This document shows positions 1,021-49,896 of a DNA stretch of 64,000 bases, in pieces (the stretch's first letter is position 1; each line of letters opens with the position of its first letter). The position numbers and the translations under genes were made by a program. The notes beneath the pieces were generated by a model. That model searched no databases. It was not told the origin of the DNA and saw nothing but the letters and a program-made list of their open reading frames with translations. Source of the DNA: an uncultured Acidobacteriaceae bacterium (GTDB lineage Bacteria; Acidobacteriota; Terriglobia; Terriglobales; Acidobacteriaceae); assembly GCA_963812865.1 (NCBI GenBank), contig CAWEWV010000011.1, forward strand, positions 354,910 to 418,909, given 5' to 3'.

Positions 1021-1092
1021 ATCAATGATCCTTGGTCAGTGACCAGTGATCAGAGGGTCGAGACGGATAGCTTTCCCATCAGCTCGGAGAAG

Positions 1093-3543: not shown

Positions 3544-3544
3544 C

Positions 3545-3922: not shown

Positions 3923-3965
3923 GACGCAACAGTAGCACACTAGGAAAACCTTTAGCCTCCGCCCA

Positions 3966-4418: not shown

Positions 4419-4488
4419 CGGGCGCTGCGCGCAGTTGACGGAGCAATTATTCCTGAAAGCCGCATTTCCCGGTCATACTATTTCCCTG

Positions 4489-5616: not shown

Positions 5617-5838
5617 ATCGAAAGAAGTAATTTTTCCTGCTCACGCACGGTGAGAAATCCTGCCTGCGTTTGCTGCTAAGATTGATTTCCAGGCGGTCGA
5701 GGCCCTCATCCGATCTGCGCGAGGAATGCCGCCGAAGGGCGCACAAACAGGCGGCGTCCCCAGGCCAAGTTTTCTCCGACCCTACTGAAACCGACCCCGC
5801 GGCAACAGCATCATTACCTTACGTCTGGCCTCAGCAAT

Positions 5839-6897: not shown

Positions 6898-6906
6898 GAC
6901 GGCGAG

Positions 6907-17162: not shown

Positions 17163-20072
17163 ATGCCTACAGGGAAGAATTGGAGCGGGTCGGCGATCCG
17201 CGCGATGTTTTTGAAGTTTTTTGAGACGAAGGGGCACCGCTGCGTGCACTCGTCGTCGCTGGTGCCTGCCAACGATCCCACCCTGCTGTTCACCAACGCG
17301 GGGATGAACCAGTTCAAGGACGTGTTTCTCGGCATCGAGAAGCGCGACTACTCGCGCGCGACGACCTCCCAGAAATGTGTGCGCGCCGGGGGCAAGCATA
17401 ACGACCTCGAAAATGTCGGCTTCACGCGCCGCCACCACACCTTCTTCGAGATGCTGGGAAACTTCAGCTTCGGCGACTACTTCAAGAAGGATGCGATCGC
17501 CTACGCGTGGGAGCTGGTGACCTCGCCCGAGTGGTACGGACTCTCCAAAGACCGCCTCTACGTCACCATCTTCGAAGGGGACGCCGAGGTCCCGCGCGAC
17601 GACGAAGCCGAACGCCTGTGGAGGGATGTCGGCGTTCCAAAGGAGCGCATTTTCACGTACGGGCGGAAGGACAACTTCTGGCAGATGGGCGAAACCGGCC
17701 CCTGCGGTCCCTGCTCGGAGATTTTTTACGACATGGGGTTGGAAGCCGCGGACACTCCGGGGGTGGACCGGCCGTTTGGGGAGGATGAAGCGCGGTATGT
17801 GGAGATTTGGAATTTAGTTTTTATGCAGTTCGACCGCGCCGCGGTGACCGATGCGAAGGGCACGGTGACGGACTACACGCTGACGCCGCTGCCGAAGCCT
17901 TCGATTGATACGGGGATGGGTTTGGAGCGGGTGGCTGCTGTTTTGCAGGGCGTGGTTTCGAATTTTGAGACCGATTTATTCACCCCGCTGATCGCGAAAG
18001 CTGCTGAACTGACGGGCGTGAAGAGCGATGTGGGCAATGCCAGCCTGCGGATTATTGCCGATCATGCTCGGGCTTCGACGTTCCTTATTAATGACGGCGT
18101 GCAGCCTTCGAATGAGGGTCGCGGGTATGTGCTCAGGAAAATTCTGCGGCGTGGGATCCGGCATGGGCGGTTGCTGGGGCAGGACAAGCCGTTCATGTAT
18201 CAGATGGTCTACGCGGTTCGGGACGAAATGCAGGATGCGTATCCGGAATTGAAGGAGAGCGCGGATCGCGTAGCGAAAGTCGTCGAGGCGGAAGAGCGGC
18301 AGTTTGCGCGCGTCCTGGAAATGGGCTCAGCACAGCTTGACCGTGAACTTAAGCAAGCTAAAGAAGCGCCAGGCAATGCTTGCCTGAAATTCGCTTCAGA
18401 TTGGTTAGTGCTGAACCAGGTTACTGAGCCAGTCTCGCCGGTCTTGAGCCACATCGACTTCAGTGCAGTAGAGAAACACCTGAACAATTTACCGGAACCG
18501 CTACTGCAGGGTCGAAATAGGCAAGACCTTATTACGCAATGGCGCGAACTTAGAAAGGCACCTTCGAAGCTCGACGGCAAGGCTGCCTTCCACCTCTACG
18601 AGACCTACGGTCTCCCCCTCGATTTCATGATGGACGCCGCCCGTGACGCCGGCATTCATTTCGATCTCGAGGGCTTCGAAGCCGCCCGCTCCGAAGAGCA
18701 GGCGCGGGCTCGTGCGTCCTGGAAAGGCGGCAGCCAAAAATCCGCCAGCCCCGTCTTTCGCGATCTGCCGAAGACCACCTTCGAGGGCTACCGGCAGCTG
18801 CGCGTCGATGGCGCGGAAGTCCTGGCCATTGTGAAGGACGGCCAGGGCGTTCCGGCCGCGAGCGCCGGCGATGCGGTCGAAATCGTCCTCGACCGGACGA
18901 GCTTCTACGCCGATTCCGGCGGCCAGATTGGCGACACCGGCTGGCTGATGAGCGACGATCACAACTCCGTCGTGGCCGACGTGAGCGGGTGCACGAAGCC
19001 GGTGCAGGGCGTCTTCGCCCATCGCGCGATTCTGCGGCAACCGATCAGGCTCGGCGACAAAGTCGACACGGTCGTCGATGCCAATTTCCGCAACGCGACA
19101 CGGCGGAATCACACCGCGACGCACCTGCTGCATGCGGCGCTGCGCGAGGTGCTGGGCACGCACGTGAAGCAGGCAGGCTCGCTGGTCGAGCCCAACCGCT
19201 TGCGCTTCGATTTTTCGCACTTCACCGCCATTGCCGATGAAGAGCTGCAGGACATCGAAGACATCATGAACAAGGAGACGCTCGGCAACACAAAAGTGGA
19301 GACGCTCGAGGACGTTCCCATCGATGTCGCGGTGAATGAATATCACGCGATGGCCCTGTTCGGCGAGAAGTACGGCGAGCGAGTGCGCGTGGTGCGCATC
19401 GGCGACTTTTCGACGGAGCTGTGCGGCGGTACGCACACCGGAGCGACGGGCGAAATTGGTGTGGTCAAGCTCCTCGGCGAAGGATCGGTGTCCTCGGGCG
19501 TCCGGCGCGTGGAAGCCGTGACCGGGCTCGGCGCGCTGAACGAGTTCCGCAAGGATTTCCAGGTGGCGCAGATTGCGGCGCAGCTGGGAGGCGCGGATGT
19601 AGCTCCGGCAGAAGCGTTGCGCCAGCGGCTCGCCGCGCAGGAAGACGAGCTGAAGAAGCTGCGTCGCGAGCTGGATGAGGCGCGAATGAAGTCCGCAGCG
19701 TCACGCGTGTCGGGCGCGACGGATCAGGCCGTCGATGTGGCCGGTATCAAAGTGCTGGCGCAACGAGTGGACGCGCTCGACCGCGGACAGATGCGGACCC
19801 TCGTTGATAATCTCCGCAACAAGCTCGGCTCCGGCGTGGTCGTGCTGGGCGGCGCGCAGGACGAGGGCAAAGTCGCGCTCATCGTCGGCGTGACCAAAGA
19901 CCTGACCGGCAAAATCCAGGCCGGCAAAGTCATCGCGCCCATCGCCAAGATGGTCGGCGGGTCGGGGGGCGGTCGTCCCGACATGGCCGAAGCGGGAGGC
20001 AAAGATGCGGAGCATCTCGACGCGGCGCTGAAGAGCGCGGCGGACGTGGTGAAGGGGCTCGTCAGCGGTTAG
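17163..20072 (+). CDS. alaS: alanine--tRNA ligase (carries an extra roughly 67-codon insertion, see findings)
   Basis: 969 aa with class II AlaRS motifs ([38 protein letters not shown]), the editing domain HTATHLLH, and a C-terminal DHHA1-like GGGGRPDMA. Confidence 0.95.
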
Positions 20073-35809: not shown

Positions 35810-38008
35810 ATGACATCGGCATGCAGTTTTATATACTTGCGCATGCTTTCATTGCGCGTTCGACTCCCACTCTGCGCCTGGGTTGCGCTTGCTCTGCCTC
35901 TGCTTCTCTCTGGATATTGGGTTCAGCCCTCTGCCGCCCAGGCCACGCCTCCTTCGGCTCCCACCCCAACTGCAGGAACGGGGCCGCACACCATGACCCT
36001 GGACGATCTCTTCCGCTTTCACGATGTGGGCGGCCCGGTGGTGTCACCGGATGGACAGTGGGTCGCCTACACGGTGTCGACCGTCGAGACCAAAGCGGAC
36101 AAGCGGATCACCGATCTGTGGATGGTTTCCTGGGACGGCAAACAGGATGTGCGCCTGACCTGGGCTGGCGATGTGGATGAGGATTCCGACGATCTCAGCT
36201 CATCGGGTGCGCCGCGATGGAGTCCGGACGGGCAGTATCTGTCGTTCACGGCAGGGCGCACCGGAACGGCGAAGGGCTCGCAGGTGTGGGTGCTGGATCG
36301 CCGCGGCGGCGAGGCGCATCAGCTGACCGACGTGAAGGGCCATCTCTCGGCTTACTCGTGGGCGCCGGATGCGAAGCGGCTGCTGCTCTCGATTACGCCG
36401 GAGGATGAAGCGGAGGCCGCGGCAGAGAAGGCAAAGGGCACGGGGGAGAAAGAGAAACCGAAACCGATCGTCGTGGACCGCTACCACTTCAAAGAAGACG
36501 TCGAAGGCTATCTGAAGGACAACGAGCACACCCAGCTGTTTCTCTGGGACGTGACGACGAAGAAGCTGGAGAAGCTGACGACGGACACGAAGTTCGACGA
36601 GAGCAATGCGGTGTGGTCGCCGGATGGAACGCACATCGCGTACGTGAGCAATCACGATCCCGATCCGGATCGCTCCATCAACACCGATGTGTGGGTCGTG
36701 GACGCGAACCCACATTCCACGCCGAAGCAGCTGACGACCTTCAGCGGACCCGACGGCGGCCGCATCGCGTGGAGCCCGGACAGCAAATGGATTGCGTTCA
36801 CCGAAGGCGACGTGCTGAAGCTGTGGCAATACAGCCAGGAAAAGCTGGGCATCGTCGCCGCCGATGGCAGCGCGGCTCCGCGGATTCTGACCACTGCGCT
36901 GGACCGCTCCGTGTCCTCGCCGTTTTTCTCCGCAGACGGCAAATCGATCGACGTGATTGTCGAGGACGATCGCAATGAGTATCCGGCCAGCGTCGACGTT
37001 GCGACAGGCCAGGTGCACCGCATGGTCAGCGATCCAGGCTCGACGACAGGGATGAACGAGGTGAACGGGCGCACGGCCGTGATCTGGACTACGGACTCCC
37101 AGCCTGGCGAGGTCTATGCGCTCGAAGACGGCAGTCTGCGACGGCTGACGCACCACAACGACGATGTGGTCGCGAGTCTGAAGCTCGCGGAGACGCGCGA
37201 CGTGAAGACGGTCACAAAGGACGGTACTGAAGTCCACGGGTTGCTGACCTTGCCGCCCAACGCGCAGCCGGGCACAAAATATCCGATGCTGCTCTTCATT
37301 CACGGCGGGCCCAATGGACAGGACAATCACGGCTTCAATCTGCACCGGCAGCTCTTTGCTGCGCACGGCTATGCCGAGCTGAATGTGAATTACCGCGGCA
37401 GCTCAGGACGCGGCAACGCCTATCAGAAGATCATTGCGGCGGACTGGGGCGATCACGAAATCCAGGATCTGCTCGCCTCCGTCGATGAAGTGGTGAAGGA
37501 AGGCTTCGTCGATCCGGATCGGATGGGCGTGGGAGGCTGGAGCTACGGCGGCATCCTCACTGACTTCACCATCGCCAGCACGACGCGGTTCAAAGCCGCC
37601 AGCAGCGGCGCGGGCATGGGCAATCCCCTGGGCCTCTACGGCATCGACGAGTACATCCTGCAATACGATTACGAACTGGGGCCACCGTGGAAGGATCCGC
37701 AGAAGTACATCCAGATCGGCTATCCGTTCTTCCACGCCGACCGCATCCATACCCCGACGCTCTTCATGGGCGGCACCTCGGACTTCAACGTGCCCCTCAA
37801 CGGCGGCGAGCAGATGTATCAGGCGCTCAAGAGCCTCAACGTTCCGGCAGAGCTGATCGTCTATCCGGGCCAGTTCCACGGCTTCACCCGGCCCAGCTTC
37901 ATCAAGGACCGGTATCAGCGGTGGTTTGACTGGTACGACCAGTGGGTGCTGGGCAGAAAGCCCGCCCCCGCAGCGCCGGTGGCTGCAGGAACGACGGTGA
38001 AGAACTAA
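35810..38008 (+). CDS. S9 family serine peptidase (prolyl oligopeptidase/dipeptidyl aminopeptidase-like), secreted
   Basis: Signal peptide, a beta-propeller region (WSPDG repeats), and a catalytic domain with GGWSYGG plus a C-terminal GQFHGF. The start could instead be 35843. Confidence 0.9.
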   Translation: MTSACSFIYLRMLSLRVRLPLCAWVALALPLLLSGYWVQPSAAQATPPSAPTPTAGTGPHTMTLDDLFRFHDVGGPVVSPDGQWVAYTVSTVETKADKRITDLWMVSWDGKQDVRLTWAGDVDEDSDDLSSSGAPRWSPDGQYLSFTAGRTGTAKGSQVWVLDRRGGEAHQLTDVKGHLSAYSWAPDAKRLLLSITPEDEAEAAAEKAKGTGEKEKPKPIVVDRYHFKEDVEGYLKDNEHTQLFLWDVTTKKLEKLTTDTKFDESNAVWSPDGTHIAYVSNHDPDPDRSINTDVWVVDANPHSTPKQLTTFSGPDGGRIAWSPDSKWIAFTEGDVLKLWQYSQEKLGIVAADGSAAPRILTTALDRSVSSPFFSADGKSIDVIVEDDRNEYPASVDVATGQVHRMVSDPGSTTGMNEVNGRTAVIWTTDSQPGEVYALEDGSLRRLTHHNDDVVASLKLAETRDVKTVTKDGTEVHGLLTLPPNAQPGTKYPMLLFIHGGPNGQDNHGFNLHRQLFAAHGYAELNVNYRGSSGRGNAYQKIIAADWGDHEIQDLLASVDEVVKEGFVDPDRMGVGGWSYGGILTDFTIASTTRFKAASSGAGMGNPLGLYGIDEYILQYDYELGPPWKDPQKYIQIGYPFFHADRIHTPTLFMGGTSDFNVPLNGGEQMYQALKSLNVPAELIVYPGQFHGFTRPSFIKDRYQRWFDWYDQWVLGRKPAPAAPVAAGTTVKN

Positions 38009-38102
38009 GCCGGACGAGCCCGAACTTCCGCGAAATCAAGGGGGGAAGGGGAGGGCTGCTCTATCGGGGGAGTACGCAGGGGAGGGACGAAGCAGGGCTG
38101 AT

Positions 38103-38453
38103 TCAGCCCTGCCGGAATGCAGGGACCGAAACCGGGTAAGCCGTAACCGGCTTGCGGGGATCGGGCACAAAGGCGGGGACGCAGCTCTGTTGAGAAGCGT
38201 GAGCACTCTCCGCCCAGTTTTCGTACTGCTCATTGATCTGGCCGAGCTGGTAGACGGTATTGCCGGTTTCGACCAGGCCCTTCGCCTTGTCGATGCTCTT
38301 AATGACAGAGGTATAGATAACGCCGTTCGGGAGGTCGGTATGCCCCATGAGGTAGCCGGTCAGGCGCTGTCCGGGTTCCAGATCCCGGAAGCCGTTGAAG
38401 ATCAGGTTGTCCACTACCGACCAGTTCTCAATCTTGGCTGTGAGCTTCTCCAT
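38103..38453 (-). CDS. small conserved protein of unknown function, paralogue B
   Basis: MEKLTAKIENWSVVDNLIFNGFRDLEPGQRLTGYLMGHTDLPNGVIYTSVIKSID...LVETGNTVYQLGQINEQY. About half the positions are identical to paralogue A over the first 80 or so residues. Confidence 0.6.
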   Translation of the reverse strand: MEKLTAKIENWSVVDNLIFNGFRDLEPGQRLTGYLMGHTDLPNGVIYTSVIKSIDKAKGLVETGNTVYQLGQINEQYENWAESAHASQQSCVPAFVPDPRKPVTAYPVSVPAFRQG

Positions 38454-38773
38454 GCCTGGGGTGGCCCTGAGCTTTCCGCCGGAACCGCTGTTGCGGCTAT
38501 CCGGCTATTACCTTCTTTGGCAGATTAGGGGCAATCGGATGACCAACCTGTAAACAGTTGAATTGGGGCGCTTTAATTTGTTACATCCATCGGCTGGGAG
38601 AAATTTTTACGTCCTGCCGCGTCGATTCTTCGCAATTCACTTGCCATTTTCGGGGCCTGGGCGGTCGAAATCTACCACCTTTGTGGCAGTGAGAGGCAGG
38701 CAACCCAAAGCTCTCACGGAAACTCCAAAGACGGTTTTCGCCCCGAGAGACGGGCAAGACTGGACCCTCCCCT

Positions 38774-40156
38774 CTACTCCGGCTTGCCCGGATTCCTGGG
38801 CTTCGGCGGCGTCTTCTCCGGTGGCGGCGGACTGCCGGGAAGCAGTCCTGGCGTCGGGCGCTTGTTGTCGTGGACCCATGCGAGCAGCTCATCGAAGGCC
38901 AGCCCCGTCTGATCTGCCGTCACGTTGCAGTGGCCGTCGCGATCGACATACTGCTCGGCGAAATTCTCGCCATTGCCCACCCGCTCCGTCAGCTCGTCGT
39001 ACCAGGCCGTCGTCGAGGCCGGCACCAGCGGATCGTAGATGGTGTGCACCTCCAGCAGCTTGCGATGCAGATTGCCGCTGGGTGAATACCAGTTGGCGAG
39101 GAATCGATACGCGTTGGGATCGGCCGAGTACCGATGCACCCTCTGGTTCAGCAGCGCATCGTTGGCTGTTCCGTTATAAACGAGGTCGAGATTGTCGAAG
39201 GGATTCCCTCCCGACTTGAGCCGCAGATCCTCAATCACGAAAGTATTGAAGACAAGCACATCCGCCAGGCCGCGGTTGGTATGGATATTCGCGAGCTCGC
39301 GCACTAGGGCAGCCTGCTCCGGATTGGCGTCGAGGCTCTTCTGCACATTCGTGATGGTCGGGATGTCGTTCATCATGAAGGTCGGCGGAATGTGCTCGAC
39401 GTCGGGCAGCACACCGGGGAAGAATGCGTCGAAGGCCACGCGGTCGGCGAAGGCGCGCTGCATGACGAAGTCGGCCGGAGCCAGCACGCCGCAGACTGCA
39501 AGACCGCCCGCGTAGTCCTTCGGGTTCTGTTCCAGCCCCATCACCGTCAGCAGCCCGCCCATCGAATGGCCCATGAGAAACGTCTCGCGCGGCGCGCCGT
39601 ATTTCTTCCGGAAATAGCGGCGGAGCGCCTCGGTTTCGGCGGCGGCCTGCGGCACGGCCCATCCGCCCACGGCGTACCCCGAGCGCGCGACCGCGTAGCC
39701 GCGATTGAGAATCTCCTGCAGGATGCGCGTGGGCGGGTATTTCGGATCGAAGACCTGGGGCGTCGGCTCGTAGCCATGGAAGTACAGCACCAGACCGTGG
39801 TTCCAGTTTTTGGGAACGTCGATGCGGAACGACGCGCCATTGATCTTGCCGGCTTCGGTTTTAACCGGCACCGGCGGCGGTCCGGCGGGCACGGCCGATG
39901 CCGCCGTGGGGACCGGGGCCGGATTGGACGCGGCCGTGTGAGTGGCCGGCGCGGGCGTGGCGGGTGAGGAGGCGTGCGCGGAGGGTGCTGTCTGGGTCGC
40001 GGGACCCGGAGTCGGGGAAGAACCCGCAGCGTGTCCGGAGGGCGTCGGGGCTGGCTGGCCGGTTTGCGCCTCGGGCGCCGTCTGCGCGCGCGATCCCGCC
40101 GCCGCGAGCGGAAGAAGCAAAAGCCACAAAGCGACGCGGCGCAGAGGTCCCGTCAA
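38774..40156 (-). CDS. secreted alpha/beta hydrolase (esterase/lipase-like) with a Pro/Ala/Thr-rich linker
   Basis: A TTG at 40156 lies 5 nt after AAAGGAG and gives the signal peptide LTGPLRRVALWLLLLPLAAAGSRAQ. GHSMGG is the nucleophile elbow. The upstream part of ORF 38774..40405 is not credible. Confidence 0.7.
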   Translation of the reverse strand: MTGPLRRVALWLLLLPLAAAGSRAQTAPEAQTGQPAPTPSGHAAGSSPTPGPATQTAPSAHASSPATPAPATHTAASNPAPVPTAASAVPAGPPPVPVKTEAGKINGASFRIDVPKNWNHGLVLYFHGYEPTPQVFDPKYPPTRILQEILNRGYAVARSGYAVGGWAVPQAAAETEALRRYFRKKYGAPRETFLMGHSMGGLLTVMGLEQNPKDYAGGLAVCGVLAPADFVMQRAFADRVAFDAFFPGVLPDVEHIPPTFMMNDIPTITNVQKSLDANPEQAALVRELANIHTNRGLADVLVFNTFVIEDLRLKSGGNPFDNLDLVYNGTANDALLNQRVHRYSADPNAYRFLANWYSPSGNLHRKLLEVHTIYDPLVPASTTAWYDELTERVGNGENFAEQYVDRDGHCNVTADQTGLAFDELLAWVHDNKRPTPGLLPGSPPPPEKTPPKPRNPGKPE

Positions 40157-40238
40157 GTACGCTCCTTTCCGCTGTGCGAAGATGAGTGTTTGCCCGTGAC
40201 CCTTGTGCCGAGCCCGGGAAGCCGCCTTTTGGAATTCG

Positions 40239-41619
40239 ATGCCAACCCCGCCCAAACGCGAGTCGCCCCGAAAGAAACAAGCTAACCCAAAAGCTCCTCC
40301 GGCGGGTTCACCGAAGCGCCCTGGGACAAAGCCGGCTGCGTCTCGCCGCGTGGACGCGCCTCCGATCGCCCCTCCCGCCCCTGCGATTCCCGGAGCCATC
40401 CGCATCGCCCGCCGGGCCGCCGACCGTCTGCGCGCCGGCCATGTGTGGGTCTATCGGTCCGATGTCGAAGAATGGCCTGCCGGTGCGGATCGCCTCCCAG
40501 CCGGTCTGGTTCCGGTGACCGATCGCCGCGGCGCGCTGCTGGGCACGGGCCTCTATAGCCCAGCCTCCGAAATTGCGTTGCGGCTGGTCTCGCAGGAGCT
40601 TCTGTCCGACGAAAGCGCATGGCTCGCCATCCTGCGGGAACGGCTGCGCGCTGCGATCGACCGCCGTGCACGCCTCCTCGACCGGGACAACAATGCCTGC
40701 CGGCTCGTCTTCAGCGAGGCCGACGAGCTGCCGGGCATCACGGTGGACCAATACGCGGGCCTCGTCGTGGTGCAGCTGCGCCACAAGGCCCTCGACAACG
40801 ATGCGACCCGCGCGGCGGTGACGGAGACGATCCGCGCAGCCGTCAACACCGAACGAGGTGGGCCCGATACGATCCTCGAGCGCGAAGATCCGCGCATCCG
40901 GGAGCTGGAGCAGCTCAGCGTTCCCGCTTCGGCAACGTTGTTCGCGCGGGACCCGGAAACGCCCGTCACGAGCACCGGCTTCCGCCTGAACGGGCTCGAG
41001 TTCCATTTCGACGCGACCAGCGGCCAGAAGACCGGCGCGTTTCTCGACCAGCGGGAGAACTATGTCGCGGCTGCGCGCTACGCTGCCGGCGAAGCTCTCG
41101 ACGTCTGCACCTACCAAGGGGGATTCGCGCTGCATCTGGCCCGCGTCTGCCCGCGCGTCACCGGGATTGACGTCTCCCGGACGGCGCTGGAAGTGGCCGA
41201 CCAGAACCTGGCAGCCAATCGCGCGGCTCTCGGCGCCTCCGATGTCGATTGGGTCGAAGCCGACGCGTTCGCTCTGCTGCGCGACTGGAGCGATGCGGGC
41301 ACGGTTTACGACACCATCGTTCTCGATCCGCCGGCCTTTGCGAAGAGCAAACGCGCGGTGGAAGGGGCGCTGCGCGGCTACCGCGAACTGAACCTGCGCG
41401 CTCTGAAGATGCTGCGCCCGGGCGGGCGGCTGATCACCTGCTCCTGCTCGCACCACGTCTCGCTCGATGCGTTCATGGAGACGCTCCGCGCCGCTGCCGG
41501 CGATGCGCGCCGCCGCGTGCGCCTGCTCGAAATCCGCGGCGCGTCGGCCGGATCATCCCGTGGTGCTGAATATTCCGGAGACGGAGTATCTGAAGTGCGT
41601 GGTGGTGGAGGCAGAATAA
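40239..41619 (+). CDS. rlmI: class I SAM-dependent 23S rRNA (cytosine-C5) methyltransferase RlmI-like, with an apparent frameshift near 41546-41552
   Basis: PUA-like RLRAGHVWVYRSDV and the MTase motifs DVCTYQGGFALHLA and LDPPAFAKSK. The conserved C-terminus DHPVVLNIPETEYLKCVVVEAE-stop (TAA 41617-41619) is in a different frame from the body of the gene. Confidence 0.8.
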
Positions 41620-41834
41620 GTTGCAGCGCCAGGGCGGCGGCCAGCATTCCTCCATCCCTCCTCTTCAGCCAAAGTTGGGCAGCCCTTGGGCACCAAAAAA
41701 CTTTTGTGTGGGCGAGGTTGGGTAAACACCTGCATCGGCGAACTTTGCGGGGTAATACCCTGAGGGTGTTACCCCCTTGCCGCGTCCCCACGCTCGCCGA
41801 CAGCAGGCCGCCCGCCTTTGCCCTTCAGGGATAG

Positions 41835-41868
41835 AAAAGCCGCCTAACGAGGCGGCTTTTTCTTTTTT
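41835..41868. terminator. strong bidirectional-looking intrinsic terminator at the edge of the AT-rich island
   Basis: AAAAGCCGCC-TAACGA-GGCGGCTTTT followed by TCTTTTTT. This is a 10-bp stem with an A-tract 5' and a T-tract 3'. Confidence 0.6.
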
Positions 41869-41963
41869 ACTCCCTATTATTAGAATACCAAGTTCAGCGA
41901 GTAAGTACGCCAAATATTATTGGGTCGGCTGGCGTGTAAGTCCTTGTAAGTCAGCGGTCATTA

Positions 41964-42000
41964 CTTTGGATTTTTCCACATCCCCTTGACAAATTTTGGA
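41964..42000 (+). repeat. 37-nt promoter-like repeat, copy 1
   Basis: CTTTGGATTTTTCCACATCCCCTTGACAAATTTTGGA. It matches copy 2 at 32 of 37 positions and contains TTGACA. Confidence 0.7.
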
Positions 42001-42326
42001 GAAGGAGCGAGGGAACGGAATTTGGTGGGCAACTTAACTGCAGAACGGCTAACGGGCATTGTTTGTTTCTCTGCTCGATCAGGCTGTGGTTAAGGTGGAA
42101 TGGCGTGGCTCACAGCCTTTCAAATATTTCAACCGAAACGGGCTTCATCAACTCCCTGAAATCCCTTTCGAGGGGAATCGGGGGTTTTCTTTTTCCAGCG
42201 CGCTTCTCTCTTTTTAGTGACCTTTGAGGACCGCCGCGTACCAAGGATGCCTGTTACGATTGTCGCATAAACCGCCGCGTTTAAACGCCCTTTCCCCACT
42301 TCCCCCTGTACCGCACGACGCGGGCC

Positions 42327-43244
42327 ATGAACGTTAACAGGAGCGCGAATGTGACGATGATAAATCTAACGATACTGCCAGACTGGAACTCGCTCGATTC
42401 AATGAGACGCGCCCACAGCGACTTGGAGGCTGCTGGTCTCTTATTTTTCGCTCTGCTCGTCCTGATGGAAGCATTAGCCCATACCTCCAAAGACGATAAG
42501 AGGAAGCATCTATTAGACACAATCGGTATCTGGTTCTTCGCAATAGCTATTGTTTGCGAGATAGCCGGATACAAGTACGGCCAAAGGAACGACGATCTGT
42601 CGGGAGAGAAGATCAAATCTCTGGATACCGAAGCTGGTGATGCCCTTAAGAAAGCCTCTGATGCCCACACGCTCGCGCAGAGCGCGTCCGACATCGCCAA
42701 ACCAGCAAAGGAAACTGCCGACACGGCGAAGGGCGAGGCAGACGCAGCTTTAACTAAACTGGGGATTGTCCAAATAGGTGTAGATACTGCGAACGCCACA
42801 CTGGCTGACATCCAATCCAGAATTGCATGGCGATCAATTTCAGATGAGCAAAAGAAAACGCTGGAATATTGGCTCCGGGATTCCCGGGGAGAAAGCATCA
42901 CCGTAACGTGGGAAGAAAAGGACCCCGAGGTAAACATATTTGCTCTGTCGCTTGTATCCGCATTGCAAGATGCCGGACTGACTGTCCACCCAGCCCCTGT
43001 TTCTTTGGAGGCAGTGGGCTCAGCAAGAGCCTCCATTCTCTACGTATTAATTGAGGGAGACCCCACAATTAATACGTTTGTCAATCGTTTGGCAACGGCT
43101 CTCGTCTGTTCCTCTTTGGCGCGGGCGCCCATACAAACATTGCGGTCTACGGGCAGGATCGTGACCTTAGAAGTCAGACCTCGGAATCCGACCCCGCTAC
43201 CTCCGTTTCCGCTCGGATGTACCAGCGTTAGCGCCAGCCAATAG
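42327..43244 (+). CDS. hypothetical 2TM plus coiled-coil membrane protein (AT-rich island)
   Basis: Two TM helices (AAGLLFFALLVLMEAL and IGIWFFAIAIVCEIAGY), an Ala/Asp/Lys-rich helical segment (TEAGDALKKASDAHTLAQSASDIAKPAKETADTAKGEADAAL), and a C-terminal globular part. The start could be the internal Met at MINL or MRRA. Confidence 0.55.
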   Translation: MNVNRSANVTMINLTILPDWNSLDSMRRAHSDLEAAGLLFFALLVLMEALAHTSKDDKRKHLLDTIGIWFFAIAIVCEIAGYKYGQRNDDLSGEKIKSLDTEAGDALKKASDAHTLAQSASDIAKPAKETADTAKGEADAALTKLGIVQIGVDTANATLADIQSRIAWRSISDEQKKTLEYWLRDSRGESITVTWEEKDPEVNIFALSLVSALQDAGLTVHPAPVSLEAVGSARASILYVLIEGDPTINTFVNRLATALVCSSLARAPIQTLRSTGRIVTLEVRPRNPTPLPPFPLGCTSVSASQ

Positions 43245-43300
43245 ACAACAAGCCCTGTCACGGCCTGCACAGTAGACCTTAACGTGCGAGGACATTTTCT

Positions 43301-43337
43301 CTTTGGATTTTTCCACAAAGGCTTGACAAGTTTTGGA
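43301..43337 (+). repeat. 37-nt promoter-like repeat, copy 2
   Basis: CTTTGGATTTTTCCACAAAGGCTTGACAAGTTTTGGA, in the same orientation as copy 1. It lies in the convergent spacer between the two island genes. Confidence 0.7.
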
Positions 43338-43621
43338 TGTCGGGCCGGTTGGGTAAAAGGAGGACGGTATCGCATGCGGATCGCCCATTCGGGATCGCAT
43401 TCAAGGACGAGGCGAGAGGGCAATGTGAGCTGCGTCTGTTCCAAAGTGGGAGGCCCAAAGTTACTTCGGAACTGAGGCAGGGATATTTATCTGGACGATC
43501 CGACGACAGGAAGCTTTAGCTTCTTGCTGTGGGGTGAACCTGGCCGCTGAGCATCGGCTTGCTCTGAGCCGAATGCGCTTCGTGCAAGGAGAAGCGACCG
43601 TAGGTGTCATAGTGGCCGGAA

Positions 43622-44430
43622 TTATACGACTTGCGGTGGTGTTCCCTCTATTAAGCGCAGCATAAAGATTCTGACTGCGCCAATGATGTGTTCGGCGATA
43701 TCGGGCGTAAAGTCTGTATTCGGAACAATGGCGAGATGATTCGCTGCGTGGTCAACCTTGTGACGCCATGCCAGCACCAAGCTGTCGATTTCACGGTGCA
43801 TTTGTTCTAAGAATGGGAACTGCCCCGTTAAGTCGCTTGGCAAGCCAGCATGGCCGCCGTTTACCAGGAGTTTCAGGCGCTTCTCGGTTGCCCCCCATCC
43901 TTTGCGGGGATCGGTCACCCCAATGTCGTTTCCAGCTTGATTGCTCCCCATTCTGCTACCTGCATGGAGTGAAATATTGCAGCGGTATATCTTGCCAGAG
44001 AAAAGCATTTATTCATCTCTTCAACGTCCCGGATAATCTCCGGGCATCGGTCAAGTATCGCCCCCCAGCCTTTTTGCCAATTCTCGTAGCGATCAGCTTC
44101 GGCTGGAGAAAGCGCCAGAAAGAATTCGAATTGCAATTCGTCAACTATCCTGGAGCATAACGCATCCAGGAGGGTAGTTTGTGTACCGATAGTGCAGTCA
44201 TCTCGTTTCAAAGCGTCAAGCAGTCTGTCGGCAGTAGCAATGGGTGTTCGCAGCCCGAGATAGACGCACTCCTGACGCGCACTTTGAATCACTTCGATTC
44301 CCTCCAGACGGAGATGTTCTGGTATCACGTCGCTTTTATCGTCGTGACGCCACATCCCGGCAATGTCGGCGAAAGCGCTGGTTAGGGATGTCACGAACTC
44401 TGCATGGAATCTCTTCATGATTTCCGCCAA
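43622..44430 (-). CDS. hypothetical all-helical protein with a HEPN-like R-x4-H motif, with an apparent 1-nt frameshift near 43928-43934
   Basis: ORFs 43915..44430 and 43622..44008 overlap in different frames and join sensibly (...FHSMQVAEWGAIKL / NDIGVTDPRKGWGATEKRLKLLV...). The C-terminal half contains LVLAWRHKVDHAANH. Confidence 0.5.
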
Positions 44431-44559
44431 GGCAACGAGTTGACTTCGCGCACACGATCTCCTACCTTCTCTCTAGCTTGGTAGAGGAGTGTGCAAATCT
44501 AACTTCAGTAAAGTATATTATTGCGACTTACGACTCCGGGGTATCCAGACCGGCGTTCC

Positions 44560-45745
44560 TCAGGGGATGTCGGCGTATTCCGGCGAGAGGTCGCGGAGTT
44601 TCGGACGACCTCGATGAGCCGCTCGGCAACGTAGTCGATTTCTTCTTCGGTATTGAAGCGGCCGATGCCGAAGCGGATGGAGAGTGCGCGGCCTCTTCGC
44701 TGAGGCCGAGGGCGCGCAGCACATGCGACGGCTCAATCTCGGCCGAGGTGCAGGCCGAGCCGCTCGACAGCGCGACATCCTTCAGGCCCATCATCAGCGA
44801 TCTCGCTGTCCACGTGCTCGAAGGTGATGTTGAGATTGCCGGGCAGGCGATGTTCCTGCGAGCCGTTGACCCGGATCCGCTCGAGCCCCGCCTCGATCTT
44901 TGCCTGAGGCGATCGCGCAGCGCCGTCAGGCGCGCGGCTTCCGACTGCCATCTCTGCGGCGGCGATCTCGCAGGCTGTGCCCAGTCCCACAATGCCGGGA
45001 ACGTTGAGCGTGCCGGAGCGCATGCCGCGCTCGTGGCCGCCGCCGTGCATCTGCTCCGCGAGCGGTGACTGCGGGTTGCGTCGCCGGACGTAGAGCGCGC
45101 CCACGCCCTTGGGTCCGTAAATCTTGTGCCCGGAGATGCGAGAGCAGATCGATGTTCTGCGGTTGACGTCAACCGGAAGCTTGCCGGCTGCCTGAGCCGC
45201 GTCGGTGTGGAAGAGGACGCCACGCTCGCGGCACAGCGCGCCGATCTCGTCGATCGGCTGAAGCGTCGCCGATTTCGTTGTTCGCAAACAGGATGGAGAC
45301 GAGCATCGGCTTCTCGTCGTCGATCGCGCGGCGCAGATCGTCGAGGCGGATGCGACCGTCTCCATCGACGGGCAGGACCGTGACGCGGCAGCCCTGTTGT
45401 TCCAGCCAGCGGCAGGGGTCGAGGACGGCCTTATGCTCGGTAGCCTGGGTGACCACGTGACCGTGGGGATCGGCGGCGCTGGCAGCCTCCACGACGCCTT
45501 TGAGCGCGAGGTTGTTGCTCTCCGTGGCGCCGGAGGTGAAGACGATCTCTTTGCGGCGTGGCGCCGATGAGCGCCGCCATCTGCGCGCGCGCGTCTTCGA
45601 CGGCTTGTTCGGCCGCCCAGCCAAAGGCGTGGCTGCGGCTGGCGGCGTTGCCGTAGCGCTCGGTGAGGAAGGGCATCATCGCCTCGAGCACCCGCGGGTC
45701 GAGCCGCGTGGTGGCGTGATTGTCGAGATAGATGGGGAGGTTCAT
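44560..45745 (-). pseudogene. iscS: cysteine desulfurase IscS/NifS-type, reading frame broken at least eight times
   Basis: Highly conserved pieces occur in all three minus frames: [13 protein letters not shown]..., [17 protein letters not shown]...TEHKAVL, ...[35 protein letters not shown]...[66 protein letters not shown], and [14 protein letters not shown]-stop. The length of 1186 nt is not a multiple of 3. Confidence 0.85.
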
Positions 45746-45769
45746 CGAGGCCTGATTCCAGGCCGTCCG

Positions 45770-46240
45770 CTACAACTGCTTGATGGTATAGCTGAGGTCG
45801 CACAGTTCCGGCCGGCGTCGCTGACGGCAAATCGGCTGCCGGCTCCGCCAGGTCGGCGATGCTGATGCTGCGGAGCAGGCCGGAGATCAGTCGTTGACAC
45901 GCGCCAGCGGTTCTTTGATGGTGCAGCTGGCGGTCAGGTCGCAGACCGCTGTGGCTGGGTCCGCAGGAGGTGATGAAGAGGGGCCCGTCGATGGCGTGGA
46001 TGACCTCGAAGGCGGAGATTTCGCGCGCTTCTTGAGCAGCGAATAGCCGCCGTTCATGCCGGCGTGGGAGCGCAGGATGCCCACCTTCGCCAGCCGCTGC
46101 AGGATCTTCGCCAGCAGCTGCGGCGGGATGTGGTAGGCCTCCGCGATGTCCTTGGCGCTGAGCGAGGCCTGATTCGCGTGCTCGGCCAGGAACTTGAGCG
46201 CCATGAGGCCGTAGTCGGCTTTTTTGGTGAGCCTGAGCAT
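45770..46240 (-). pseudogene. iscR: Rrf2-family regulator IscR-like, four alternating frameshifts
   Basis: MLRLTKKADYGLMALKFLAEH...GMNGGYSLL (frame A), AREISAFEVIHAIDGPLFITSC (frame B), CDLTASCTIKEPLARVN (A), LISGLLRSISIADLAEP (B), then ...LSYTIKQL-stop (A). Confidence 0.75.
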
Positions 46241-46395
46241 AGTTCGCCCGTATAGCAAGTTTACGGGGAAGAGGAAGCGAATTCAATTGGAATGCGGGAT
46301 TCAGCTGGTCCAGTGGATTTTCGGGCGCTCGGCCGCGAGACGAACGGGGCCGCGCCGCGTCTGTTGCATCAGCCATTTCTCGAGGGAAGGTGACG

Positions 46396-46865
46396 ATGAT
46401 ACGACGCAGTTTCCTGCCGGCGGTCCTCTGTGTTTTGGTGTGCCTGTCCACGGGCGTCCAGGTGGGGTCTGCCGCGGCGTCCTCTCCCCCGGATCTGGCC
46501 CATACCTGTCTCATCACCGAGGATGTGGATCGGCTGGTCGCGTTCTACGAGCCGGTTCTCCAGCGCAAGGCGCAGCGCAGCGGGCAGGATTACGCAGAGT
46601 TCCGCACCGGCTCCGGCGTGCTGGCGATTTTCTCCGCCCAGGCGCAGGAGAAGTACATCCCCGGCTCGGCAACGGCGGCGAGCAATCGCAGCATGATCCT
46701 CGAATTCAGGGTGAGCGATGTCGATGGCGAGTACGCGAGGCTGCGGAGTCTGGTCAAAGTCTGGGTCAAGCCCCCACCACGCAGCCCTGGGGGACGCGGT
46801 CGGTTTACTTTCGGGATCCGGACGGGAACCTCGTCGATTTCTTCACGCCCGCACGAAAGCCGTAG
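46396..46865 (+). CDS. secreted VOC (glyoxalase/bleomycin-resistance fold) family protein, with an apparent frameshift in the C5 run at 46771-46775
   Basis: Signal peptide MIRRSFLPAVLCVLVCLSTG, then HTCLITEDVDRLVAFYEPVL...ILEFRVSDVDGEYARL in one frame. The typical end TTQPWGTRSVYFRDPDGNLVDFF is in another frame. Confidence 0.7.
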
Positions 46866-46882
46866 CGGGCTGGGGCGGGGTT

Positions 46883-47770
46883 TCAGCGCGTACGTGCAGC
46901 GTCGTAGACCGCCTGGGCAATCTCCGCGATCACGTGTTCGCGCACCGCGGGGGGCGCGGCCGCATCGGCCACCAGGATCGCGATGGCCAACTTTCGTCCG
47001 TCCGGCAACGTGATCAGCCCCACATCGTTGGTCGCATTGGTGAAGTTGCGGGCCGAACCGGAGGTCCCCGTTTTGTCGGCGACCACGGTTCCGGGCGGCA
47101 GCAGCGCTCTGATTCTGTGGTCGCCGGTGTGGGAGGCGGTCATCCAGCCGAGGAGCAACTGCGTGTGCTGCGGCGAGAGCGGCGAGCGGTCGGCGAGGAG
47201 ACGGAGCAGCGCCACGAGGGCGCGCGGCTCGGCGGAGTTTCGATCCTCGAGCTTCACCTCACGGCCGAGGGCCTGCTCCGTGTCGACGATGTGGATGCCG
47301 CTGATGCCGAGGCTGCGAACGTACGCGTCGGGCGCCGATGGGCCGCCCAGGCTGCGGACGAGCATGTCGGACGCTACCCCATCGCTGTTCGAAACCGCGA
47401 GGCGCAGCAGGTCTTCGATGGGTACGTCGGCGTTGCCGTGGGGATGCTCCTGTTGCAACTGGCTGAACTGGTCGGGGGCGATCCGGTCGGAGGGGAGAAA
47501 GCGGATTTTCTGGTCCAGGGTGAAGCGGCCCTGCTCGACGGCGTGCAGCATCGCCATGGCGATCGGCAGCTTGTATACCGACTGCATCGGAAATGCGTCG
47601 GCCGCATGAACATTGCAGTCCAGCGTCTTCCCCGGCAGGGAGCACGCGACGCCAACGCGGCCGTGGGCCTGCGCCGCGATGCGGGCGATATCAGCGCTGC
47701 GTTGAGCGTGGGCGGAAAGCGCGAGACCCAACGAAGCCAGAAGAGAAGCCAGAAGAGAAGCGCGGGGCAT
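46883..47770 (-). CDS. class A beta-lactamase-like serine hydrolase, secreted
   Basis: Signal peptide plus the SVYK (SxxK), SNSD (SDN-like) and KTGT (KTG) motifs in the canonical order and spacing. Confidence 0.8.
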   Translation of the reverse strand: MPRASLLASLLASLGLALSAHAQRSADIARIAAQAHGRVGVACSLPGKTLDCNVHAADAFPMQSVYKLPIAMAMLHAVEQGRFTLDQKIRFLPSDRIAPDQFSQLQQEHPHGNADVPIEDLLRLAVSNSDGVASDMLVRSLGGPSAPDAYVRSLGISGIHIVDTEQALGREVKLEDRNSAEPRALVALLRLLADRSPLSPQHTQLLLGWMTASHTGDHRIRALLPPGTVVADKTGTSGSARNFTNATNDVGLITLPDGRKLAIAILVADAAAPPAVREHVIAEIAQAVYDAARTR

Positions 47771-47806
47771 TCAGCCGATTGTATCGGCAATCCTCAGGAC
47801 GGAGGG

Positions 47807-48583
47807 TTACACCCAACCGCCATCGATGACGTAGCTCTGGTTCGTGATGGAACTGCTGTCGTCGGCGGCGAGGAAGAGGATCAGGCGCGCCACCTCTTCC
47901 GGCAGGATCAGGCGCTTGAGGGCCTGGGCGGCGAGGATTTCGGCTTCGTACTCCGGGGTGAGCCAGAGACGGCGCTGGCGTTCGGTGACGATGGCGCCCG
48001 GCATCACGCAGTTGACGCGGATGTTGTCGGCGCCCAGCTCGTGGGCCAGGGTGCGCGTCATGCCGACGATGCCGGCTTTCGCCGTGACGTAGACGGGCAC
48101 GTTCGTCGACGGAATGACCCACGCAATCGAGCTGACATTGATGATCGAGCCGCGTCTCGCCTGCCGCATACGGGGAATGACGGCCTGCGCCATGAAGAAC
48201 TGCTGTTTGAGGTTGATCGCGATGGTGCGATCCCAGAATTCCGAGGTGACTTCTTCGATGGAGTGACGCGCGTCGTTGCCGGCATTATTGACCAGCACAT
48301 CGACGGTTCCGCAGCGGTCGAGGATGGTCAGCACCGCGGTCTGGAGGGCCGCAACGTCGGTAAGATCGCAGGCGACGAAGGTCGGCGCATGGGCGCTGAC
48401 CGGTTGCAAGCGCTCGATCAGTCTTCCCGCAGCGTCGGCTTGCACGTCCAGGAAAACCACGCGCGCGCCGTTCGCGGCAAAGGCCTCGACGATGGCTTCC
48501 CCAATGCCGCTGGCTCCGCCCGTTACCAGGACGACGCGATCCTGCAGGCTTGGATAGGTGGCGAACGCAGAGGCGGGCGGCAT
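47807..48583 (-). CDS. SDR family oxidoreductase
   Basis: VVLVTGGASGIGEAI cofactor motif, NNAG, and the catalytic YVTAKAG (YxxxK). Confidence 0.85.
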   Translation of the reverse strand: MPPASAFATYPSLQDRVVLVTGGASGIGEAIVEAFAANGARVVFLDVQADAAGRLIERLQPVSAHAPTFVACDLTDVAALQTAVLTILDRCGTVDVLVNNAGNDARHSIEEVTSEFWDRTIAINLKQQFFMAQAVIPRMRQARRGSIINVSSIAWVIPSTNVPVYVTAKAGIVGMTRTLAHELGADNIRVNCVMPGAIVTERQRRLWLTPEYEAEILAAQALKRLILPEEVARLILFLAADDSSSITNQSYVIDGGWV

Positions 48584-48618
48584 CGGTATCGATGATAGCC
48601 GCAGTCCGGATGCGAACC

Positions 48619-49896
48619 TTATTGCGGACGCACCACCGCCAGCGAAATCGGCGACTGCGGCAGGGTCACCGCGCCGCCCGCAATCTCCGACAGCTCCCCC
48701 GTGGCCGGATTGACCTTGTAGGCGACGATGGTATCGCTGGAGGCGTCATCCCCCGCTCCCCGGTTCGGGACCAGATACACGTATTTCACTGCCGGATCCA
48801 CCACCACCCAGGATCCGTAGCTCGCGCTGTAGGTGGCGATCAGGCTCAACGCGCCCGTGTCCTCGTTGATCTCGTAGTCGTACATCGCCCTGTTCCCGAG
48901 CGCATAGAGAAAGCTGCCATTGGGCGCCATCAGGATGGCGAACGGAGCGGTCTCCGGTGTTACTCGGGCCAGCCACTGAAGCGTGGTGAAGGTGCCGTCC
49001 ACACCCATGCTGTATGGCACGATCTCGTATTGCCCGACGCCCTCGTTCGGATAAACGGGCTCCGCTGCATACAGATACTTCGCCGAAGGAGTGACTGCTG
49101 GCGCGACGCCCACCTGTGCGCCGCCGAGGGCGATGTTGGTGGTGAGGGAACCATTCGAGGGACTGATGTGGAAAGCCGCGATGCTGGAAACCGACTGGTA
49201 GGTGAGGTTCACAAAAACGTCGGTGCTCGACAGGGCGGGCGGCTCAGGGACAGCGCTGCCGGCAGCTAGCGCGCTGCCCAGAGCATAGGGCGATCCGGGC
49301 ACCTCGGAGAGATGACCATTGGCGGCGACATAGTATCCATATAAGTGGATGGCGCCGCCGATGGTCAGCGCGGGTGGCGTGCCGTACAGGTACTGCCCCG
49401 TCGGATCGACGGCGATGGCCCCCGCGGGGATCGGGAGGTTGGCGATATTGGTCAGGGTGCCCGTCGTCGCATCGACCCCGAGCGAATCGACTCCATCGCC
49501 GATCAGGTTGTAGGCGAGGAAGAGGAACCGGCCCAGCGGATCGGCGGCGAGATTCGTCGAGCATGCCGCCGTGCACGGCCGCGAATTTTCGGTTCCGACA
49601 TTCGCCAGGAACGGCTCGCCGCTCACAGGAGTCAGCACTCCCGTTGATGCGTCGATTTGCCAGGCGTAGACCGTACCGCCGCCGCCGGACGCGGTGGCAT
49701 AGAGGAACTCGTTCCCGCTGCTCGTGCTGCTTCCCGACGACCCGCTGCCGCCGGTGGTGCCGGAACCGCCGCTTCCGGTACCCTCGCTTCCACCCGAGCC
49801 TCCGCCCGGCGAACTGCTGGTCATGTTGATGCTATTGCCGCAGCCGGTGAGGACCAGCGCGATCGTCCAAGAGAGGGCCAGGCGAAGAGCTTTCAT
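48619..49896 (-). CDS. lipoprotein with beta-propeller (lactonase-like) repeats and a Gly/Ser-rich N-terminal linker
   Basis: Lipobox LVLTGCGNS, a long GSG-rich tract, and repeated ...G.(Y/F)L(Y/F)... blade motifs (GRFLFLAYN, GQYLYGTP, AKYLYAAEP, GSFLYALGN, VKYVYLVPN). Confidence 0.7.
   Translation of the reverse strand: MKALRLALSWTIALVLTGCGNSINMTSSSPGGGSGGSEGTGSGGSGTTGGSGSSGSSTSSGNEFLYATASGGGGTVYAWQIDASTGVLTPVSGEPFLANVGTENSRPCTAACSTNLAADPLGRFLFLAYNLIGDGVDSLGVDATTGTLTNIANLPIPAGAIAVDPTGQYLYGTPPALTIGGAIHLYGYYVAANGHLSEVPGSPYALGSALAAGSAVPEPPALSSTDVFVNLTYQSVSSIAAFHISPSNGSLTTNIALGGAQVGVAPAVTPSAKYLYAAEPVYPNEGVGQYEIVPYSMGVDGTFTTLQWLARVTPETAPFAILMAPNGSFLYALGNRAMYDYEINEDTGALSLIATYSASYGSWVVVDPAVKYVYLVPNRGAGDDASSDTIVAYKVNPATGELSEIAGGAVTLPQSPISLAVVRPQ

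Follow-up and report, generated by a model that had tools for sequence, protein, structure and literature searches.

What do two adjacent genes without annotation in a patch of compositionally foreign DNA represent: a single functional system, or pieces of separate origin that have come to lie side by side? We consider this question for a low-GC island between rlmI and iscS in a 64,000-nt stretch of DNA from an uncultured Acidobacteriaceae bacterium (assembly GCA_963812865.1, contig CAWEWV010000011.1, positions 354,910 to 418,909), hereafter called the window. The island holds two genes, A and B, and a preliminary description drawn from the sequence alone had proposed that they form a conflict or defence module in which a two-transmembrane (2TM) protein is paired with a HEPN-like nuclease. 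Our analysis points elsewhere: the island very probably consists of the remains of two transporter insertion sequence (tIS) units of the IS1595 family, each with one cargo gene. The features on which this reading draws are listed below; related loci are numbered with L and proteins with P, and IRL and IRR stand for the left and right terminal inverted repeats (IRs) of an insertion sequence (IS).

41641–44557, no strand: the whole island, a strain-variable filling between rlmI and iscS; locus L120 is collinear with the window up to 41640 and again from 44558, and L123 aligns up to 41615 and from 44570.
41834–41868, plus strand: terminator-like hairpin (41834–41861, 12-bp stem) with a T-run, within the variable DNA; also found in the L120 cassette, in inverted orientation.
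41939–41963, plus strand: degenerate second copy of the right end of the A-carrying element (IRR'), seen in a gapped alignment of 41939–42000 with 43274–43337; likewise in L120.
41964–42000, plus strand: first copy of the 37-nt repeat D1, about 12 nt left of the transposase stub and 86% identical to the second copy.
42013–42103, plus strand: frameshifted 3' stub of an IS1595-family transposase gene, about 20–25 codons, reading TAERLTG / FVSLLDQAVVKVE; the L024 transposase reads NRRAANEPMFVSLLDQVVTRAE and stops.
42327–43244, plus strand: gene A, intact, 305 aa, with a conserved 2TM N-terminal module, an alanine-zipper coiled coil and a variable C-terminal domain (from the open reading frame (ORF), Pfam, and closest homologues, which lie inside IS elements).
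43272–43299, plus strand: IRR of the A element, ACCTTAACGTGCGAGGACATTTTCTC, which aligns to the IRRs of L012, L024 and L025.
43301–43337, plus strand: second copy of D1, abutting the IRR.
43338–43621, no strand: spacer that separates the A cassette from the 3' end of B and in which tblastn and hidden Markov model (HMM) searches detected no transposase remnant.
43622–44418, minus strand: gene B, 265 aa once repaired, with a variable helical N-terminal part and a conserved HEPN-like C-terminal domain of about 160 aa; alternative TTG start at 44430, 1-nt deletion at 43932–43933.
43748–43765, minus strand: R-x4-H motif, with the codons for R-H-K-V-D-H, in the C-terminal tip of predicted helix 3; WRHKVDH occupies 43748–43768.
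44507–44525, minus strand: surviving terminal IR of the B element, (C)GCAATAATATACTTTACT, identical at 17/18 positions to the end of the L006 element.

In regard to composition, the island stands apart from everything around it. Positions 41641–44557 form the sole extended low-GC patch of the window, with a GC content of about 0.52 against 0.65–0.70 in the flanks. Measured in 400-nt intervals, GC drops from 0.65–0.70 to 0.48–0.55 from about 41700 to about 44500 and climbs again at iscS, and a run below 0.56 in 500-nt intervals is found nowhere else in the 64 kb. GC at third codon positions (GC3) deviates as well, at 0.55 in gene A and 0.52–0.57 in gene B compared with 0.80–0.83 in four flanking genes. 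The switch to AT-richer DNA between rlmI and the isc locus that had been noticed in the preliminary description is thus borne out by both windowed GC and codon composition. Isolated 500-nt intervals with a GC of 0.54–0.56 also occur at about 8001–8500, 18001–18500 and 38251–38750.

A search for RlmI homologues, followed by comparison of their gene neighbourhoods, shows that the filling of this intergenic region differs or is absent in relatives. The 853-kb contig L123, whose RlmI is 87% identical, carries rlmI and then iscS and iscR with a spacer of only 311 bp and represents an empty site. Two contigs of the same species, L120 and L121, show 98.1% and 92.7% identity to window positions 36000–41640 and 44558–48773, and their filling is a different one: 1.9 kb long, without gene B and with an A-like gene of 321 aa encoded on the other strand. 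Collinearity with L120 stops 22 nt past the true stop codon of rlmI and restarts at the iscS stop. This true stop lies at 41619 and not at the end of the long ORF, 41834, as the 3' end of rlmI is frameshifted by an extra G in a G-run at 41546. Judged from these comparisons, the rlmI–iscS intergenic region is a hotspot for insertion, and the island in it varies between strains and was acquired horizontally, in keeping with the earlier suggestion of acquired cargo between conserved genes. The strong terminator reported at 41835–41868 is present, both as hairpin and as T-run, but it does not mark the outer boundary of the island as had been supposed. Because L120 and the empty site set the limits of the region at 41641–44557, the terminator belongs to the variable DNA and not to rlmI itself.

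The left part of this DNA retains recognizable pieces of an IS. Window positions 42036–42267 align to positions 1237–1466 of L024 with 73.5% identity over 234 nt (E=5e-29), and the aligned stretch of L024 comprises the last ~70 nt of its transposase gene and the spacer ahead of its A homologue. The window stub runs into FVSLLDQAVVKVE where the L024 transposase terminates in MFVSLLDQVVTRAE. It is seen only in this DNA alignment; tblastn and a purpose-built HMM found no IS1595 transposase remnants in the window. The earlier remark that neither an integrase nor a transposase occurs in the island is literally true, in that none is intact, but it obscures the IS origin, of which the stub and the terminal repeats are remnants. 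The similarity between the two D1 copies extends with gaps over 41939–42000 and 43274–43337, which makes a direct repeat on either side of the gene, again as in L120. Because D1 extends into the IRR copy, the duplicated unit comprises the right end of the IS and 37 nt of its flank, and its junction is possibly a tandem-duplication junction or a pair of abutted IS ends. We also considered the D1 repeats as left IRs of two tandem cassettes and set this aside as unproven, with only the inner ATCCC(C)TTGAC resembling an IRL and the terminal GGCAA tip missing.

Homologues of gene A supply the complete arrangement of which these pieces appear to be parts. Its nearest full-length relative, P0122 (47% identical, locus L012), has an IS1595 transposase immediately upstream, and the same layout of transposase followed by A within IRs is found at L012, L024, L025 and L027, the loci of the closest homologues. 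At L027 the element is bounded by perfect 29-bp repeats, CGGCAATAAATGACTTGACTAACCCAACC, that are near-identical to the ends of the B-carrying L006 element. Because these repeats are nearly the same and the L027 and L006 transposases are 61% identical, one IS subgroup carries either A-type or B-type cargo. Alignment of the stub with the L024 gene further indicates that the A cassette of the window arose through deletion of the transposase gene.

The filling of the same-species contigs is a variation on this cassette. At L120 6761–8663, and also in L121, the same ends and the same transposase stub occur in inverted orientation around another cargo gene; read as the reverse complement, the order is hairpin, terminator, IRR' with D1, transposase stub (MFVSLLNQTVAEAEW), cargo gene, and IRR with D1. 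The 321-aa cargo protein has a 2TM segment, a coiled coil and a C-terminal domain, and its homology to family A is limited to the C-terminal domain (hhalign probability 93%, E=2.5e-7). Since stub and order are the same in L120, we infer an order of rearrangements in which the transposase-less cassette predates the split of the window strain and L120, between which its orientation and cargo differ. The locus provides a clean natural case of cargo replacement plus inversion at one intergenic hotspot in strains with 98% identical flanks.

Gene B leads to the same IS family. In the window it is split into two minus-strand ORFs, 43915–44430 and 43622–44008, by one missing G in a G-run (CC at 43932–43933 on the plus strand), which places precisely the 1-nt frameshift suspected near 43930; repair gives an intact protein that is 99% identical to the intact database protein P0001. 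The frameshift is probably an assembly error because the housekeeping gene rlmI contains a similar G-run error relative to the same-species contig (RlmI 99% identical). A reading of gene B as a pseudogene is unsupported for the same reason. A word-indexed search returned 175 homologues of B, all annotated as hypothetical and none with a Pfam domain, and a profile search enlarged the family to 3,248 representatives at E<=1e-3 (50% clustering), for which there is no Pfam model. A phage origin of B was rejected, as a phage collection contained no homologue.

When one genome per species was scanned, 11 B loci were obtained, all of them in metagenome-assembled genomes of Acidobacteriota. B is low in GC in every one (0.45–0.52 against a background of 0.56–0.68), and in nine it is adjoined, usually convergently, by an ORF of about 310–340 aa that encodes an IS1595-family transposase (PF12762, E=1e-38; zinc ribbon PF12760). 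At seven loci B and the transposase are enclosed by IRs with the consensus GG(G/C)AATAATATACTTGAC.AA.CA, each with an inward-facing TTGAC box. Perfect 8-bp direct repeats abut the element ends at L006 (GAAAAAAG) and L011 (CCAAGCCT); once ends are shifted by 1 nt by eye, 8-bp repeats also appear at L027 (GATAGAGC) and L012 (CACAAACG), and L024 matches at 7/8 positions. Because such IRs and 8-bp repeats surround both B and the transposase, B lies inside a transposable unit. Intact elements span L006 106–3320, L011 9885–12206 and L027 330–2727, and the one at L011, whose B is 37% identical to that of the window, is complete with its target duplication. A DDE transposase is also present at L012, L024, L027, L089, L092, L095 and L124, the last of which encodes P0455, a B protein of only ~28% identity that is again convergent with an IS1595 transposase.

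The window retains one end of such an element. The IR at 44507–44525 coincides exactly with the GC boundary, 77 nt upstream of the TTG start of B and 35 nt from the stop codon of iscS; it is the single match in the window, and 0/100 shuffles reach it.

Several additional observations concern the structure of B-carrying elements. At the P0110 loci (L112–L119, ~4001–7071), B overlaps a downstream 234-aa ORF without a Pfam domain by 4 nt, and a DUF2513 gene lies between this ORF and the transposase; because two extra genes separate B from the transposase there, the cargo can be multigene. An insertion of ~830 bp similar to L006 3318–3788 splits the transposase gene next to B at L002 10950–12786, L004 11635–14916 has two tandem transposase copies downstream of B, and nesting of one IS in another is common at B loci.

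These data can be combined in the following account. The first unit (~41939–43337) would derive from an element of the form IRL, transposase, A, IRR that lost its transposase bar the last ~20 codons and kept gene A and its right end intact. The second (~43338–44525) would derive from an element in which B and a convergent transposase lay between two IRs, and its survivors would be gene B and the B-side terminal repeat. Both units would now be immobile unless a related transposase acts in trans. B may be a selfish cargo, or one akin to a toxin or an abortive-infection gene, that helps the element to be retained, with its variable N-terminal domain serving as a regulatory or sensor part. Conflict-type settings of some homologues also speak for the account as a whole: distant B homologues on plasmids lie near HipA and VapC, and one A homologue lies near an XhoI system, a PycTM-like gene and a resolvase.

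A number of observations weigh against this account. The window itself has no transposase, and its IS origin is read from remnants and from relatives. The A unit has no recognizable left IR in the window, the B unit has one clear IR, and a second B IR is missing both in 41000–45500 and in the window as a whole. Simple transposition does not account for the duplicated junction of IRR and D1 or for the L120 inversion. Finally, a transposase is present at only 8/92 A-family loci; most members of the family are solitary, which makes A an occasional passenger.

How does the island compare with known classes of mobile DNA? Mobile insertion cassettes, in ISfinder nomenclature, are IR-flanked cargo cassettes without a transposase. 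The A cassette resembles them in having no transposase, in keeping an IS end, and in its presence in both orientations, and with differing cargo, in two strains that are nearly identical; unlike them, it has no recognizable matching left IR and no visible target duplication, and its stub marks a transposase deletion. A closer likeness is to the tIS, an IS with passenger genes, which according to TnCentral is restricted to the IS1595 and IS66 families (10.1101/2021.05.26.445724). As in a tIS, the relatives of A and B are each found with an IS1595 DDE transposase (zinc ribbon plus PF12762), IRs of 25–30 bp and 8-bp duplications. The window copies differ in being dead, without a transposase, and in having one-ended or degenerate ends. 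Where the relatives encode PF12760 and PF12762 and have full IR pairs, the window has a stub of ~20 codons, one B IR and one A IRR, with the partner ends missing or degenerate. The element type is thus a known one, while the cargo families and the deep linkage of B to a transposase appear to be undescribed: in a literature search, with ISfinder outside its scope, we found no publication that links HEPN to IS1595 or describes either cargo family.

Gene A belongs to a family with a three-part layout, for which we collected 119 homologues. An N-terminal 2TM module of ~100 aa is very conserved (LPDWNSLDSVR...YGQRND), and the remainder consists of a variable Ala-rich coiled coil and a hypervariable C-terminal domain. 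In gene A itself, hydrophobic segments at ~33–53 and ~62–82 and a match to Alanine_zipper (PF11839; residues 96–143, E=6e-5) agree with the two N-terminal TM helices and Ala-rich coiled coil described earlier. Pfam sees nothing but the Ala zipper in the family, and the same scan found neither SLATT nor any other known effector TM domain in gene A. On the strength of this architecture, gene A is predicted to encode a coiled-coil protein that is anchored in the membrane and whose C-terminal domain diversifies rapidly, and our best guess is that it has a surface, exclusion or defence-type function. Apart from those within IS elements, A homologues are solitary between housekeeping genes.

One A homologue, P0176 (L013–L018, ~500–7600), lies in a conserved mobile or defence-like island, recovered from >20 metagenome contigs, with an XhoI restriction enzyme, an N6/N4 methylase, a DUF5677 gene, a weak PycTM match and a resolvase. 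The coding region of gene A contains, at 43042–43077, a near-perfect inverted repeat with arms of 16 nt and a loop of 4 nt (ACGTATTAATTGAGGG / CCCACAATTAATACGT).

Gene B probably belongs to the HEPN superfamily, in which it would form a new family. The published hallmarks of HEPN proteins (Anantharaman et al. [quoted passage not shown] The R-x4-H motif that had been noticed in the C-terminal half of B has the polar residue after its R, and neither R nor H varies in 40 close homologues (set A1), in 26 sequences (set A3) or in 66 sequences at 24–39% identity (set A4). In this last set the only invariant columns are W118, H150, R219 and H224, and the motif is mostly RNKISH or RHKISH, with N or H after R and the general form WR[HN]K[VI].H. 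An AlphaFold2 (AF2) model of the C-terminal domain, with a predicted local distance difference test score (pLDDT) of 84.8 and a predicted template modelling score (pTM) of 0.81, has helices at 27–41, 45–67, 76–89 (the insert), 102–128 and 140–160. R120 and H125, in domain numbering, are predicted to lie at the end of helix 102–128, ahead of a flexible loop to the last helix, and an invariant Glu, E57, is placed in predicted helix 2 (45–67). As predicted, the domain thus matches the four-helix up-down topology of HEPN proteins.

This assignment must be weighed against searches that did not recover it. PF05168 is the only recurrent Pfam family, with matches in 2/40 close and 15/66 distant members (best E 0.003), but every match is under the gathering score and spans helices 1–2 only (model positions 8–42). 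Foldseek against the PDB gave only noise with the full-length B model; with the C-terminal domain its weak top matches included HepT (6m6w, E=0.27) and the HEPN structure of sacsin (3o10, E=0.33), with no match at E<0.09 and TM-scores <=0.41. A PDB sequence profile search recovered no relative of B, no antitoxin or partner gene is evident for it, and a toxin role is conjecture. The proposed HEPN fold therefore agrees with the motif and the predicted topology, while Foldseek and Pfam matches remain below significance.

The same results would suit a different explanation, one that we judge unlikely, in which the C-terminal domain is an unrelated four- or five-helix bundle whose R-x4-H is conserved for binding of a ligand or nucleic acid. 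No HEPN protein gives a significant structural or profile match, the top Foldseek match is a de novo designed helical bundle, and the invariant W118 and H150 are not classical HEPN positions. Against this explanation, R and H make up two of just four invariant columns across 66 divergent sequences, with N or H after R as in HEPN proteins; the position of the motif, the helix 2–3 insert and the helix 2 Glu agree with the published description; and the sole recurrent Pfam family, PF05168, matches in the right register. Gene B is most likely a metal-independent HEPN-type RNase, with predicted catalytic Arg and His residues in WR[HN]K[VI].H.

As such, B has both likenesses to and differences from described HEPN RNases. 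With Abi2/AbiD, AbiV, AbiJ-C and HepT it shares the helix 2–3 insert, the acidic helix 2 residue and an R-[NH]-x3-H motif with which helix 3 ends, and, like the HEPN proteins of the abortive infection (Abi) type and HepT, it occurs on mobile DNA and in conflict-type neighbourhoods. Unlike them, it has no significant match to a described HEPN family or Pfam model, carries an extra variable N-terminal helical domain of 100–140 aa, and has no minimal nucleotidyltransferase (MNT) partner. A nucleotidyltransferase domain is absent from both A and B, and the island holds no other gene, so that no MNT partner is available there; at L002, L007 and L124, moreover, the typical spacing of 150–170 nt from B to the transposase is too short to hold a partner gene.

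In two plasmid loci, L127 3403–4408 (Rhizobium) and L128 3352–4456 (Komagataeibacter), an ORF of 92–121 aa precedes the B-like gene, overlapping it in L128, and the B-like protein of L127 is shorter, at 207 aa. Because of these small preceding ORFs and the short L127 protein, it may be that some lineages encode the variable N-terminal part of B as a partner protein of its own.

A further question is whether B is more to its IS than a passenger. It could be an integral accessory factor of the IS1595 lineage, for instance an RNase that tunes transposase expression or processes the element transcript. We regard this as quite improbable, although several features of B elements speak for it: linkage of B to the transposase holds from 65% down to ~28% B identity, the convergent layout is fixed with B within the IRs and their inward TTGAC boxes, and the C-terminal domain is more conserved (A3 mean column identity 74%) than the transposases (~60%). 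There is also a precedent in toxin–antitoxin (TA) modules embedded in the transposition module of Tn3-family transposons, including one HEPN–MNT pair in TnSod9 (Lima-Mendez et al. 2020, PMC7157771). B resembles these as a predicted RNase toxin-type gene inside a transposable element that it plausibly stabilizes; it differs in residing in a small IS1595-type DDE element and not in a Tn3 element, and in being solo, with no recognizable antitoxin. Against an integral role, B occurs without a transposase at L001, L009 and the P0113 loci and on four alphaproteobacterial plasmids, where distant homologues have HipA, VapC, an HNH gene and IS elements as neighbours and no IS1595 transposase is present. 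In addition, the same IS subgroup holds the unrelated cargo A in place of B, and the spacing between B and the transposase ranges from 150 to 1300 nt, with extra genes between them in some elements.

A broader proposal, that the B family is an undescribed HEPN-type RNase family that co-evolved with an IS1595 lineage as a solo transposon-encoded nuclease, strikes us as doubtful but worth stating. If true, an IS would carry an RNase of its own that serves its maintenance, its regulation or the manipulation of the host, and the range of transposon-integral toxin or nuclease modules, such as the Tn3 TA genes and IS605 TnpB, would extend to IS1595. On this proposal, gene A and the L120 protein of 321 aa would be interchangeable choices of cargo for one cassette frame. 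If the link between B and the transposase is functional, these elements would offer a simple, testable case of an IS with its own nuclease.

The reading of A and B as a two-gene Abi or toxin-type defence module, a 2TM effector and a HEPN nuclease acquired jointly, is by contrast highly improbable. Pairings of 2TM and HEPN proteins occur in conflict systems, and here A and B are adjacent and convergent in a single low-GC island, with B indeed HEPN-like. Yet the two are never found together elsewhere: 0/92 A loci have a B homologue, and 0/11 B loci have an A homologue, or for that matter rlmI or isc genes, within 10 kb. L120 carries an A-like cassette without B, and within the window an IS right end (43272–43299) separates the two genes, which fall into two different IS1595 cargo units. 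The comparison with SLATT-type systems fared no better; beyond a superficial likeness, a 2TM protein beside a HEPN-like one, there is no SLATT or effector domain match, no conserved adjacency and no PADLOC match. Pfam, NCBIfam, PADLOC and PHROGs gave no useful match for either protein, and the absence of a named family for both in Pfam, NCBIfam and PADLOC does uphold the impression that they are not housekeeping proteins. From their distribution across loci, A and B appear to have arrived separately and not to be a functional pair.

An assembly artefact, a chimeric join or poor long-read consensus, is the least credible source of the low GC and broken genes, for although rlmI and B have homopolymer-type frameshifts and ~40 indels relative to L120 occur in iscS and iscR directly right of the island, gene A is intact, B is 99% identical to the independently assembled P0001, the cassette ends of the left part recur in the independent Joint Genome Institute (JGI) contigs L120 and L121, and both junctions coincide exactly with the ends of the rlmI and iscS genes.

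The interpretation of the island as two decayed IS1595 units bears on annotation in general. What would be recorded as a mystery defence island becomes decayed IS1595 transporter-IS units, and two adjacent hypothetical genes should not be taken for one system. In soil Acidobacteriota, two sizeable unannotated families would move as IS cargo, one of them a probable family of HEPN RNases.

Two minor observations concern the edges of the island. On the right, the 1.5-kb iscS–iscR segment (44599–46028) has ~40 scattered indels relative to L120, of a non-homopolymer type and with raised divergence, compared with 3 in the 5.6-kb left flank and 1 in 2.7 kb further right. IscS (391 aa) and IscR (153 aa) are intact in L120 and L123, and the window copies are either pseudogenes or the product of a very poor local consensus that starts exactly at the right edge of the island.

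An Rfam scan gave no match above threshold across the island, the gap between A and B included. On the left, the variable region of the window contains the motif AAAA(A/G)CTTTTGTGT(G/C)(G/A)GG (41693–41775), followed by the hairpin GGGTAATACCCTGAGGGTGTTACCC; both are conserved in L120. The empty-site spacer of L123 (9290–9370) has two copies of the motif without the hairpin, and this motif may be an intergenic repeat of the repetitive extragenic palindromic (REP)-like type.

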